The translations under genes and the position numbers were made by a program. From Candidatus Bathyarchaeota archaeon (GTDB lineage: Archaea; Thermoproteota; Bathyarchaeia; TCS64), in assembly GCA_017883585.1 (NCBI GenBank), contig JADGNG010000081.1, positions 1 through 57,750 of the forward strand: a stretch of DNA of 57,750 nt. Reading direction: 5' to 3'. The notes under the pieces are model-generated. The model was not told the DNA's origin, made no database searches, and saw only the letters and a list, made by a program, of their open reading frames with translations. Positions within the stretch are counted from its first letter, which is position 1, and every line of letters begins with the position of its first letter. Shown in pieces: positions 2,227-6,599 of this stretch.

Positions 2227-2829
2227 TTACTCCGCCAGCTTGTCCTCGTACCTGGTGTACATCCAATACCCGAGGAGTATCGCCCAGACACTGATATATA
2301 CAACTGATAGTGCTTCGGGGATTGCCACCGCTGCCCATGGTAGGAACCATATTCCCGCGGCCAGGACCGCGCTCCCTACTGAGAGCAGGGAGTAGAACCT
2401 CATCTTCTTCCTGAAGAAGAAGACCCCGATTATCGCGACGGAGAGGGGAAGGGCCACGAAGAAGCCGAGGCTCACATAGCCGTGCCAGGGCTCGATGGTG
2501 ATGTTGATGACGCCCACGGCGATCAAAAGGATTGATGCTATGAGGAACATCGTGGTCCCGACCTGCCCAATCATGTCCTCCTTCGTCATCTCGAACAAGC
2601 CTGTGCTGAACATCATTAGGAGCGCCCCGACCATGGCGAGGCCTGAGTTGAAGAGGATCGCCTCGAAACCTTCCGTTCCGCCGAGGTCACTTAAGGCGTT
2701 TCCAGTCCAGCTGAACCAAGGAGAGAACCATATGCTCGACGCGATAATGAGGAGCCCGAAGAGAGGCGCGATTAAACCGAAGAGCCCGGCCAGCCGCAGG
2801 ACCTTGAGATTCATCAACCGAAGAAACAC
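2227..2829 (-). CDS. DUF998-like membrane protein
   Basis: PWFSWTGNALSDLG motif, about 6 hydrophobic helices. Confidence 0.75.
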   Translation of the reverse strand: MFLRLMNLKVLRLAGLFGLIAPLFGLLIIASSIWFSPWFSWTGNALSDLGGTEGFEAILFNSGLAMVGALLMMFSTGLFEMTKEDMIGQVGTTMFLIASILLIAVGVINITIEPWHGYVSLGFFVALPLSVAIIGVFFFRKKMRFYSLLSVGSAVLAAGIWFLPWAAVAIPEALSVVYISVWAILLGYWMYTRYEDKLAE

Positions 2830-2857
2830 TCCAAGTATGTTAAGCCTATCGCAGGGA

Positions 2858-3373
2858 CTACGCTTTGATACCCCGCGACTCGAGGAGCTTCCTCAACCCG
2901 GAGGCATCAAGCCCCTTGACGAGCCCGTAGCCGATGACCGCGACTGAGATGAGGCTACTAAGTGAGATGCTCACGATCATGGCTAGCCACACTGGGAGGG
3001 TTAGGCCGAGAACGTCGGGTGGCGGAAAGAACGCCCAGAGGTAACCGCCAACGACCAACCCTATAACGAGGGAGGCCCCGACGCAGCCTACGAGCAGCCT
3101 CCCCCTGAGCTTCCAGATGAGCAGACCTGCAAGTAGGTTTGCCAAAGCCCCGAAGATGACATCGACGGGGCCTAAAAAGTAGTAGAAGTTACCAACGAGC
3201 GCACCTAGGGACACCCCCAAGGCAGCCGGCCAGCCCAGCAGGGCCGAGAGCGGGATAAGACAATCCGCGACCCTCAACTGAATAGGGCCGTAACTTATTG
3301 GTGCGAATACCACGACAAGTGTCGCGTATAATGCCGCTAGTACGGCGGCTAGACTGATCTCTTTGACATTCAT
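2858..3373 (-). CDS. queT: QueT family (preQ0/preQ1 precursor) ECF S-component
   Basis: AALYATL...PISYGPIQLRVAD signature; ATG at 3373 preceded by GGAGG. Confidence 0.85.
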   Translation of the reverse strand: MNVKEISLAAVLAALYATLVVVFAPISYGPIQLRVADCLIPLSALLGWPAALGVSLGALVGNFYYFLGPVDVIFGALANLLAGLLIWKLRGRLLVGCVGASLVIGLVVGGYLWAFFPPPDVLGLTLPVWLAMIVSISLSSLISVAVIGYGLVKGLDASGLRKLLESRGIKA

Positions 3374-3447
3374 GCCTCCCTTCACCGGGGTTTATCTGGC
3401 GGAATCGGGTGGGAGGCCCCACTCACCCGCCGAGGTGAAGGAAAAGC
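3374..3447 (-). promoter_or_regulatory. Candidate riboswitch-like leader sequestering the queT Shine-Dalgarno
   Basis: UUCCUUCACC pairs with GGUGAAGGGA (contains the SD); nested GGCGG/CCGCC and GUGGG/CCCAC stems. Confidence 0.5.
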
Positions 3448-3621
3448 GCGGACACATAAAGATTGCTAGTTGACCTGAGGCGTGCGCTGGCCAACTCGAA
3501 TAATACGCCAGAGGCCATAGCTCTGCCAAGGATTAGTCAAGGGGCCATCTGACCTCTGCACCACCTATGTGTCGCGCCTTTCTCCGACTTTATTATAATC
3601 ATCTACACTAACATCATTCTC

Positions 3622-4236
3622 ATGGAAAAGATTGACCTCAGGAAGGAGTTGAAAAGATTCTACACGCCAAAGGATAAGCCAGAAATTGTGGATGTACCGG
3701 AGTTTAGCTTTCTTACGTATACCGGTAGGGGTGTACCCGGCGGGGAGGCTTATCAGGAGTCTATTAACGCCCTTTATGGAGTCGTGTACACACTAAAATT
3801 CTCCTCGAAGAAAGTTGGCAGGGACTTTACTGTGATGCCACTCGAGGGTATCTGGTGGTGGGACGACCCAGGCGTCGTTAACCTCGACGACGCTCCGCCC
3901 AAGGAGACCTGGAATTGGACGAGCATGATCCTCGTCCCCGACTTCATCACGGCTGGTATGCTCGATGAAATCATGTCATGCCTCGTAGAGAAGAGGGGTA
4001 AAGAGGTGGAGAGGGTGAAGCTGGAGCGGCTCCACGAGGGGCTTAGCGTCCAGATGCTACATGTCGGCCATTATAGCGACGAGCCAAAGAGCCAGAAGCT
4101 AATCCAAGCCTTCATCGAGGAGAATTGCTACTGCCTCCGCGGGTGCCACCATGAGATATATATGAGCGACCCGAGGAGGGCGTCGCCGGAGAAGTGGAAG
4201 ACGATCATCCGTCACCCCCTCGAGAAAGTGGCTTAA
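3622..4236 (+). CDS. GyrI-like small-molecule binding domain protein
   Basis: KIDLRKELKRFY, VMPLEGIWW, HVGHYSDE, HHEIYMSDPRR motifs. Confidence 0.85.
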   Translation: MEKIDLRKELKRFYTPKDKPEIVDVPEFSFLTYTGRGVPGGEAYQESINALYGVVYTLKFSSKKVGRDFTVMPLEGIWWWDDPGVVNLDDAPPKETWNWTSMILVPDFITAGMLDEIMSCLVEKRGKEVERVKLERLHEGLSVQMLHVGHYSDEPKSQKLIQAFIEENCYCLRGCHHEIYMSDPRRASPEKWKTIIRHPLEKVA

Positions 4237-5229: not shown

Positions 5230-5273
5230 TTTTAGATAGGCACCTGTCGCATTGCCTTGGCAGGGTGACACAT

Positions 5274-6599
5274 ATGGGAGACAAAGAGCGACTCTTTGAA
5301 TACGTCGAGGAACACAGGGACGACCTAATATCGACTCTGAGGGACCTTGTCAGAATCGACACTCAAGTTCCACCGGGGAAGAACTACGAAAAGATATGCG
5401 GGCTGATCGCGGACAAGTTGACGGCGGTCGGCTGCGATGTAACCATCCACAATGCCACCGAGAGATACCTCACCCTATCAGGGGTGATGCAGCTCGGCCT
5501 GGAGGGGCCAAGAAGTAACGTCGTCGCACGCTTGAAGGGTAAGGGTGGTGGGCCCTCGATGCATATGAGCGCCCATATCGACACAGCCGCCATACAGAAG
5601 GATGGCTGGAGCGTAGATCCCCTCGGCGGGGAGGTCACGAAAACTTGCAAATATGGTAAGAGCATCTACGACGTCGGAGGCGGCTATATATGGGGTCGCG
5701 GCGTCTGCGACGACAAGGGCCCATTAGCCACAGCCATTACTGCCATCACGGGAATCCATGAACTCGGCATCAAGCTCAAGGGGGATCTGATCCTCACTGG
5801 CAACTGCGATGAGGAGATCGGTGGAGTCGCTGGCCTCGGTTACCTCATCAGGGAGGGAATAGTTAAAGCGGACTTTGGTCTGCAGCTCGACGGCTCCATG
5901 AATATGATAAACCTCGCCGCCCAAGGTAGGACCAGGTTCATGATCAGGACCATTGGCAAGGCTTACCATGGGCAGATGCCTATCCTCGGCGTCAACGCCA
6001 TCGAGAAGATGAGTAAGATCAACGTAGCTCTCGACAACTACTGGAGAAACGTTCTCATGAAGAGGCAGCTCGCCACCCCAGGGATCGAGCTTCCGTCTGA
6101 GATAAGGGAGGCGGGGGTCGATAAGCTCACAGCCATGCTAAACATCGGCACAATAAAAGGGGGAGTCCAGGGGGCAACCGTCCCTGACCTTTGTGAGGAG
6201 GAGGTGCTCAGGTGCATGACCCCCGCCGAGTCCTTCGAGGATGTGGAGAGAGAGTTAAGGGCCGTCATCGAGGGTGTCAAGGCTACGGATGCGGATCTCC
6301 GCTACGAGGTCGAGGTCGTTAACAGTCGCGGCGGCTACGTCGTCCCATCAGATGACCCCTTCGCCCTGGAGGCGAAGAAGATAATGAAGGAAGTAACCGG
6401 CAAGGATCTCCCATTTGTAGGTAACCTCGGGAGTACTGACATGAATTATCAGGTGGTTGATGGGAAAATGCCATCCGTAAACATAGGCGTTGGCGAGACC
6501 TACACAAACTACCACAAGAGAGATGAAAGCGTCTCTATAGACGAACTCGCCCTCTGCTCGAAGGCCGTCGCCCTCTTTGCGCTCAGAAAGCTCGCCTGA
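5274..6599 (+). CDS. M20 family metallopeptidase/deacylase, paralog of 888..2222
   Basis: HID, GRGVCDDKG, DEEIGG motifs; colinear similarity to 888..2222; ATG 5274 preferred over GTG 5265. Confidence 0.88.
   Translation: MGDKERLFEYVEEHRDDLISTLRDLVRIDTQVPPGKNYEKICGLIADKLTAVGCDVTIHNATERYLTLSGVMQLGLEGPRSNVVARLKGKGGGPSMHMSAHIDTAAIQKDGWSVDPLGGEVTKTCKYGKSIYDVGGGYIWGRGVCDDKGPLATAITAITGIHELGIKLKGDLILTGNCDEEIGGVAGLGYLIREGIVKADFGLQLDGSMNMINLAAQGRTRFMIRTIGKAYHGQMPILGVNAIEKMSKINVALDNYWRNVLMKRQLATPGIELPSEIREAGVDKLTAMLNIGTIKGGVQGATVPDLCEEEVLRCMTPAESFEDVERELRAVIEGVKATDADLRYEVEVVNSRGGYVVPSDDPFALEAKKIMKEVTGKDLPFVGNLGSTDMNYQVVDGKMPSVNIGVGETYTNYHKRDESVSIDELALCSKAVALFALRKLA

Follow-up and report, generated by a model that had tools for sequence, protein, structure and literature searches.

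A conserved pseudoknot-forming leader of archaeal queT genes as a candidate preQ0-responsive translational riboswitch

The subject of this analysis is a short RNA leader located directly upstream of a queT gene in Candidatus Bathyarchaeota archaeon (GenBank assembly GCA_017883585.1, contig JADGNG010000081.1), of which positions 1 to 57,750, i.e. the whole stretch of 57,750 nucleotides hereafter called the window, have been analysed. An earlier note, made from the sequence alone, had described this leader as a new translational switch that senses 7-deazaguanines; the leader sequence that it reported is present on the minus strand, where it spans 3446-3371 and not 3374-3447. The gene that follows is identified as QueT by a Pfam scan (PF06177, E 4.8e-25, 89 bits against a cut-off of 33.7), and its N-terminus aligns with the starts of the proteins of related genomes; its AUG, at 3373-3371, is located directly 3' of the motif GGGAGGC. 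The conserved core of the leader comprises about 58 nucleotides, 3431-3374 of the minus strand, directly 5' of queT. The core is numbered from the first G of GGCGG as position 1, so that a window coordinate equals 3432 minus the position. The elements of the core and the gene behind it are as follows, with A1, A2 and A3 denoting our alignments.

3427..3431, minus strand: 5' strand of helix P1, GGCGG (positions 1-5), paired with 3402-3398, with covariation
3418..3426, minus strand: loop L1, GUGAGUGGG (positions 6-14), near-invariant in alignments A1, A2 and A3, unpaired in the pseudoknot state
3411..3417, minus strand: 5' strand of the pseudoknot helix, GCCUCCC (positions 15-21), the anti-Shine-Dalgarno tract, paired with 3380-3374
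3406..3408, minus strand: CCG (positions 24-26), with a proposed pairing to CGG at 3387-3385
3403..3405, minus strand: junction L2, AUU (positions 27-29), with a nearly invariant UU and an A that is an insertion of this lineage
3398..3402, minus strand: 3' strand of P1, CCGCC (positions 30-34), covarying with the 5' strand
3388..3397, minus strand: loop L3, AGAUAAACCC (positions 35-44), an A-rich tract followed by conserved C's
3385..3387, minus strand: CGG (positions 45-47), the proposed partner of CCG at 3408-3406
3381..3384, minus strand: linker UGAA (positions 48-51), variable in sequence, its length covarying with that of the 5' spacer
3374..3380, minus strand: 3' strand of the pseudoknot helix, GGGAGGC (positions 52-58), the Shine-Dalgarno tract and the next base, with covariation
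2858..3373, minus strand: queT coding sequence, 171 aa, stop codon included, Pfam QueT PF06177

Comparison of the leader with its relatives indicates that the conserved RNA is an H-type pseudoknot, composed of P1 and of a helix between the loop and the 3' tail, both of which are backed by covariation. The GGCGG/CCGCC stem that had been drawn in the earlier note is borne out among the relatives: across 159 distinct sequences (one of 160, L121, could not be parsed and was excluded), pair 5 of P1 is G-C in 134 and C-G in 25, and pair 1 is G-C in 118, A-U in 19, G-U in 9, U-A in 5 and C-G in 2; a U-A variant of pair 3 occurs in locus L292. What the note had missed is the main feature, namely that the loop and the 3' arm of the inner hairpin (GCCUCCC) are complementary to GGGAGGC. 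Compensatory variants of this second helix include CCUCCU/AGGAGG, CCUUCCA/UGGAAGG, CACCUCC/GGAGGUG, CCCUCU/AGAGGG, ACAUCUC/GAGAUGU and GUCUCUU/GAGAGAC, as well as the variants UCCGAC/GUCGGA and CCGAC/GUCGG, in which the 3' strand is not a Shine-Dalgarno tract; position 15 covaries with position 58 through G-C, G-U, A-U, U-A and U-G. RNAalifold, applied to an alignment of 22 sequences, returned only P1 and the inner hairpin; the pseudoknot helix is missing there because the program cannot draw pseudoknots.

The pairing was counted in alignment A3, which contains 100 sequences aligned by a model without the pseudoknot, over P1, the pseudoknot helix and the CCG/CGG pairs together. Paired cells amount to 95.0% (99% in P1), against 49-57% when the partners are slid by one to three columns, and 82 cells are changed on both sides, against 23.1 +/- 3.8 after shuffling, with none of 500 shuffles reaching 82; the double changes occur at 7 of the 15 pairs. 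We regard these figures as strong support and not as a probability, because related sequences inflate such counts.

The CCG/CGG pairs are formed in 99% of the cells, and where they change (C-G to U-G, in 6 sequences), only one side is altered. The longer the linker, the more bases separate the pseudoknot strand from CCG, and in L114 and L118 the helices run nearly without interruption through CCG/CGG; an extension of the pseudoknot helix over a small internal loop is compatible with these data but unproven. The single-stranded elements are conserved as well. L3 follows the consensus NNANAAA and then (C/U/A)CC in all alignments, and its A-rich tract may dock in the minor groove of P1, by analogy with the class I preQ1 riboswitches; L1, of which positions 10-14 also serve as the 5' arm of an alternative hairpin, would provide a ligand pocket or major-groove contacts. 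The earlier note had further suggested that a CCCC of the linker could pair with GGGG; this pairing finds no support, as position 15 pairs with 58, G14 and position 42 vary without compensation, and the geometry clashes with the 15-58 helix. The related pairing GGG(12-14)/CCC(42-44) was rejected for the same incompatibility with the 15-58 helix.

The distribution of the element was followed first among close relatives and then across wider samples. QueT is present in 48 of 61 related genomes, and a nearly identical core of about 58 nucleotides, with diverging flanks, precedes 22 of the 30 best QueT loci; it is missing upstream of the other 8. Four of these 8, all from one genus of the same order (L021, L023, L024 and L025), have an upstream region that by eye resembles the 3' part of a tRNA gene. 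The earlier note had held that a lack of conserved sequence or structure among archaeal queT leaders would count against its proposal; both were found.

The 22 sequences served to build a covariance model, R1, whose structure consists of P1 and the inner hairpin. Among 151 sampled genomes of the window's class, 89 contain a match (51 of 79 genera), almost always a single one, the relatives from this class carrying Bathyarchaeia record titles; the window's own genome contains one copy, plus a 15.5-bit non-hit. In a sample of 151 genomes from the phylum, R1 matches in 27, of which 15 are located outside the class. One out-of-class family has the element in 9 of its 15 genomes, and we read it as probably Methanomethylicaceae, because loci titled Methanomethylicus have identical sequences. 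Another order includes a metagenome-assembled genome (MAG) titled Nitrosopumilales; here R1 has matches at E<=0.01 in 51 of 121 genomes, one of which (G411) is unpublished and supports no other claim. Three of 103 intended source loci (L003, L004 and L029) were left out, and two weak model matches (14.4 and 10.4 bits) were excluded before counting.

A DNA-pattern scan of the genomes of named species returned at least 120 stretches, 80 of which are listed as loci (L122-L201). R1 confirms 71 of the 80, the remaining 9 all being chance matches in bacterial-labelled records. The confirmed loci among those listed carry mostly the titles Candidatus Bathyarchaeia or Bathyarchaeota, the others being 3 Methanomethylicota, 4 Nitrososphaeria, Nitrososphaerota or Nitrosopumilales, 1 'Promethearchaeati' and 1 'Methylomirabilota bacterium' MAG. 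The leader is also carried by the genome titled Candidatus Bathyarchaeum tardum (locus L134/L072), which comes from an enrichment culture. Among the matches listed, the element is thus met only in archaeal-labelled genomes, with the exception of one bacterial-labelled MAG contig. That contig, of the Methylomirabilota bacterium MAG (L193), has the leader before QueT at 74.2 bits, and the contig of the MAG titled Promethearchaeati archaeon (L184) has it, also before QueT, at 72.9 bits; either the two contigs are misbinned, or the element also occurs outside the phylum.

The association of the leader with genes was assessed by translating the open frame directly behind each match and scanning it against Pfam. 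The first two sets gave 156 distinct frames, distributed over QueT (147, including two broken copies below the cut-off), a family of membrane proteins of about 230 aa (8 rows) and one QueE-like radical-SAM protein; frames shorter than 90 aa at contig ends are outside the 156, and four that were rechecked, two of them at or near contig ends, all match QueT. All 15 out-of-class loci precede QueT. Of 18 new loci from the order with the Nitrosopumilales-titled MAG, 13 are located before QueT, 4 before QueE-like genes and 1 before an unassigned frame of 222 aa. For the four radical-SAM proteins, the five best NCBIfam matches are all QueE, with E from 1e-29 to 3e-31, although none reaches the equivalog cut-offs. 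Genome G301, a MAG titled Nitrososphaerota archaeon, has the motif in front of a QueE-like gene, a GATase-QueC fusion of 483 aa and a DUF2848 gene (locus L271, G301:C159:4505-8137), the last of which may belong to the same pathway; in two other loci, queC comes after queT. The position of the motif in G301 is:

G301:C159:4489-4548: leader motif

In six Bathyarchaeia loci (8 rows), the multi-pass membrane protein of about 230 aa replaces QueT behind the leader. The family has no Pfam or NCBIfam match; its 191 homologues (E<=0.001) are all unnamed or 'hypothetical', and a profile comparison with QueT yields a probability of only 10.8%, over 50 N-terminal columns. We consider the family a candidate new 7-deazaguanine transporter. 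Its loci include:

L055:1565-2260, plus strand: 230-aa family
L060:811-1497, minus strand: 230-aa family
L079:168-866, plus strand: 230-aa family
L131: 230-aa family
L166: 230-aa family

The leader matches are confined to queT, to the 230-aa family, to QueE-like genes and to one unassigned frame; this is a pattern of the riboswitch type, because one leader fronts both the transport and the synthesis genes of one metabolite. The window's genome encodes an archaeal-type tRNA-guanine transglycosylase (E 3.7e-86). No true QueC was found in it, only N-terminal PP-loop matches within larger frames, and QueF was not found either; the genome being 84.65% complete, both are described as not found and not as absent.

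Some observations on the genes behind and around the leader are added here. In seven loci (L070, L168, L169, L150, L151, L042 and L173), no ATG, GTG or TTG occurs between the leader and the conserved N-terminus of queT, and an in-frame ACG, CUG, AUA or AUU is found at the expected start; either these genes have weak or unusual start codons, or their starts are mis-set. TTG and GTG starts are very common among the related queT loci. In the window, a DUF998 membrane-protein frame (2227-2829, minus strand) lies downstream of queT on the same strand, after a gap of about 28 bases, and may be co-transcribed with it; a GyrI-like gene is located upstream in divergent orientation. Two paralogous frames of 444 aa with very similar sequences flank the region (888-2222 and 5265-6599, both on the plus strand), and by eye their N-terminal pattern resembles that of peptidase or deacylase enzymes.

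The flank upstream of the core carries a promoter-like signal, which bears on where the RNA begins.

3453..3460, minus strand: TATA-like box UUUAUGUG, a putative promoter element, with an A-rich tract before it that resembles a transcription factor B recognition element

The 159 distinct upstream flanks display an A-rich, then a T-rich, then again an A-rich signal, and TATA-like 5-mers are most frequent at -32 to -29, counted from the first base of P1; the box of the window is located at -29 to -22. In archaeal promoters, the TATA box has its centre about 26-27 bp before the start of transcription. The predicted start is then located at about -4 to +1 of P1, which in the window corresponds to about 3431 +/- 3. 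The earlier note had named a start downstream of ~3434 as an outcome that would speak against its proposal; the predicted start does fall there, and it tells against the outer stem that the note had drawn, not against the switch.

Transcript data for the region are sparse: 6 RNA runs were found with small shares, and the contigs of four metatranscriptomes, examined over 2700-3700, extend over parts of the queT coding region as well as 3429-3593, with the leader itself (3278-3428) uncovered. One wetland metatranscriptome contig of 165 nt is identical to the intergenic DNA at 3429-3593, 5' of the leader, and includes the first three bases of P1; a related contig, at 3462-3613, comes from a second run. 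Such contigs may stem from either strand, and from RNA or from DNA carry-over. No tRNA and no Rfam family was found at 3429-3593.

The second fold that the leader could adopt uses some of the bases of the pseudoknot.

3409..3413, minus strand: 3' arm of the alternative hairpin, CCCAC, paired with GUGGG at 3422-3418

This GUGGG/CCCAC hairpin had been proposed in the earlier note, and it is kept in 94% of the cells; three of its pairs change on both sides, each of them in three sequences (A-U at 10:23 and 14:19, C-G at 11:22). Since the alignment was fitted to the hairpin, it lends modest support. Three to four bases belong to both the hairpin and the pseudoknot strand, so that the two folds are mutually exclusive. 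Nearest-neighbour energies amount to -17.0 kcal/mol for P1 with the hairpin and to -16.1 kcal/mol for the pseudoknot with its extension, to which P1 adds -8.0, before any pseudoknot penalty; on these calculated values, the two folds would be close enough in energy to fit a two-state switch.

In order to place the element among known riboswitches, window positions 2800-3700 and 20 further motif loci were searched with cmscan against Rfam 15 at E<=10, and no Rfam family was matched, preQ1-I, -II and -III included; the sole entry listed for the window's leader is Fibro-purF, at 13.3 bits against a gathering score of 60. Given that result, the leader is not a member of any of the three classes, and the view of the earlier note that it is not a preQ1-I element holds, as its size and its conserved loops also differ. 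In a 2024 review of the preQ1 family, three classes are described, all of them bacterial, and archaea are not mentioned (PMC11625349); a 2017 survey names mainly TPP (thiamine pyrophosphate) and fluoride riboswitches in archaea, with few examples of other classes (PMC5473149). No published description of an archaeal queT or preQ leader was found in the full texts of openly available papers.

The element nevertheless resembles the known classes as that review describes them. The archaeal element shares with preQ1-I (RF00522, types I-III) the H-type pseudoknot, a P1 of 5 bp, an A-rich loop on the 3' side of P1, a ribosome-binding site contained in the 3' strand of the pseudoknot and a link to 7-deazaguanine genes, queT among them (PMC11625349); it differs in the size of its core, about 58 nt against about 34 in class I. 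In the archaeal element, unlike class I, L1 is conserved and, at 9 nt, long, an internal loop separates the 7 bp of the pseudoknot helix from about 3 further bp, the conserved loops are GUGAGUGGG, CCG(A)UU and NNANAAACCC, and the helices are GC-rich. In class I, a specificity cytidine is positioned next to the P1 3' strand; in the archaeal element it is a UU, not such a cytidine, that adjoins this strand.

With preQ1-II (RF01054, the COG4708/queT motif), the element shares its location before queT and a pseudoknot helix that fully occludes the Shine-Dalgarno sequence; class II, as the review has it, is an HLout pseudoknot with four pairing regions and a U-A-U triple pocket, found in Bacillota only (PMC11625349), whereas the archaeal element consists of P1, a local hairpin and one pseudoknot helix, with no P4-like inserted hairpin. 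With preQ1-III (RF02680), it shares a hairpin loop whose anti-Shine-Dalgarno bases pair with the Shine-Dalgarno sequence of the 3' tail (helix P5 in class III); class III is described as having about 100 nt, five pairing regions and an expression platform far from the pocket (PMC11625349), whereas the archaeal pseudoknot is part of the conserved core.

Taken together, conservation, covariation and the downstream genes strongly favour the part of the earlier proposal that postulates a translational switch tied to 7-deazaguanines and distinct from preQ1-I; the outer-stem mechanism attached to it does not hold for the family. Our reading is that the leader is an undescribed class of translational OFF riboswitch, built as an H-type pseudoknot and responding to a 7-deazaguanine, probably preQ0, and we assign to this reading a probability of roughly 0.6 (0.62). 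Conservation, the covariation of P1 and of the pseudoknot helix, the link to the downstream genes and the lack of an Rfam match are observed; that a ligand binds, which one it is, whether it lowers expression, what the alternative hairpin does and where the transcript starts are inferred. The queT mRNA would begin with an aptamer-like RNA of about 58 nt, in which the conserved single strands, i.e. GUGAGUGGG, (A)UU and the A-rich tract that ends in CCC, would form a pocket at the junction of P1 and the pseudoknot helix. When free preQ0 is high, it would bind at this junction and stabilise the pseudoknot, which would bury the ribosome-binding site, and translation of the QueT importer would fall; when preQ0 is low, the GUGGG/CCCAC hairpin would take up the anti-Shine-Dalgarno bases and leave the ribosome-binding site free. 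The same logic would apply in other genomes to the QueE and QueC biosynthesis genes.

Several points weigh against this reading. The case for a riboswitch is a comparative one. The sequences are similar and related, the double changes come from few lineages, and shuffle controls overstate their significance; part of the complementarity between GCCUCCC and the Shine-Dalgarno tract is to be expected, because any CCUCC tract pairs with a Shine-Dalgarno sequence. The CCG/CGG pairs have no double change in A3, and by eye no partners were found for the GA/AG swap in L1 or for positions 28 and 44. The comparative support for the alternative hairpin is drawn from the alignment that was fitted to it, and the fold of the single sequence is no better than chance for such a GC-rich stretch (101 nt, z -1.65, 13 of 200 shuffles as good; 65-nt core, z -0.46, 61 of 200 as good). 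The start of the transcript is a predicted one, contigs showing neither starts nor strand. In L114, L118 and L262-L265, the 3' strand is not a Shine-Dalgarno tract, and in L264 and L265 the QueT domain starts about 64 residues into the open frame, so that occlusion of the ribosome-binding site is not the whole story in those lineages. In the window itself, the AUG follows GGGAGG after one base, which is unusually close, and for this reason GGUGA in the linker may serve as the effective ribosome-binding site.

Among the other explanations, the same riboswitch fold may recognise another ligand, such as preQ1, guanine or another purine, 7-carboxy-7-deazaguanine, the archaeosine base or queuine. 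The associated genes indicate the 7-deazaguanine pathway as a whole and no single compound, and class I aptamers, according to the review, bind preQ1 most tightly, then preQ0 and then guanine (PMC11625349). We nevertheless find another ligand unlikely, since archaea insert preQ0, the archaeosine precursor and the base used by their tRNA-guanine transglycosylase, and not preQ1, into tRNA, as stated in two reports (PMC4770233, PMC5372724), since QueF was not found in the incomplete genome of the window, and since joint control of QueE/QueC and QueT fits feedback by preQ0 as the free end product of the pathway.

It is about equally unlikely that the leader is structured but binds no ligand, acting as the site of a regulatory protein or as a constitutive or temperature-dependent translational attenuator. 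The conserved single strands could equally be the footprint of a protein, and two folds of nearly the same energy could respond to temperature; a typical riboswitch pattern is seen instead in the restriction of the element, throughout several classes and varied operons, to genes that transport or synthesise a single metabolite, and its size and its pseudoknot with an embedded ribosome-binding site resemble the known preQ1 classes. No conserved neighbouring regulator gene was noticed, in an inspection that was not a systematic search.

The explanation that survives least is the architecture of the earlier note, in which an outer stem of 10-12 bp between the 5' flank and the Shine-Dalgarno region (UUCCUUCACC/GGUGAAGGGA) is the regulatory helix.

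3434..3445, minus strand: 5' arm of the outer stem, UUUUCCUUCACC, forming a 12-bp run with 3386-3375; not conserved

This stem can be drawn in the window, where it is part of the minimum free energy fold of the 101 nt together with GGCGG/CCGCC and GUGGG/CCCAC and where its 12-bp run (3445-3434 with 3386-3375) is the longest of 157 loci, and Watson-Crick runs of at least 7 bp between the 24-nt 5' flank and the Shine-Dalgarno and start region are in weak excess across the family (17 loci against 7.5 +/- 2.2 with swapped partners, none of 100 swaps reaching 17), but the mean longest run is no better than that of shuffled upstream flanks (5.82 against 5.64, n=159), the 5' arm differs even within the genus, and the spacing of the TATA-like box places the predicted start at about P1, so that the arm is probably not transcribed; a regulatory role of the stem as the mechanism of the family is accordingly most improbable, and the excess of runs suggests that some lineages may carry an accessory closing helix.

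Returning to the preQ0-responsive pseudoknot, a bolder form of the reading, which we advance tentatively and at somewhat less than even odds, would make the element the first widespread riboswitch class native to archaea (Bathyarchaeia, Methanomethylicia and the ammonia-oxidiser order), a fourth and structurally distinct fold of the prequeuosine family and a bistable hairpin/pseudoknot switch of the ribosome-binding site, tuned to the nitrile preQ0 and not to preQ1; the 230-aa family would then be marked as a new transporter of 7-deazaguanines. Riboswitches are rare in archaea, and an archaeon-specific aptamer for a precursor of archaeosine, if true, would show that archaea have evolved RNA sensors of their own. 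For a ligand family that has been studied well, the element would then supply a new fold, with which the different ways of recognising one scaffold by RNA could be compared. It would also point to a new family of transporters, and in lineages that are largely uncultured it would offer a functional marker of preQ0 salvage and synthesis as well as a means of regulating them.

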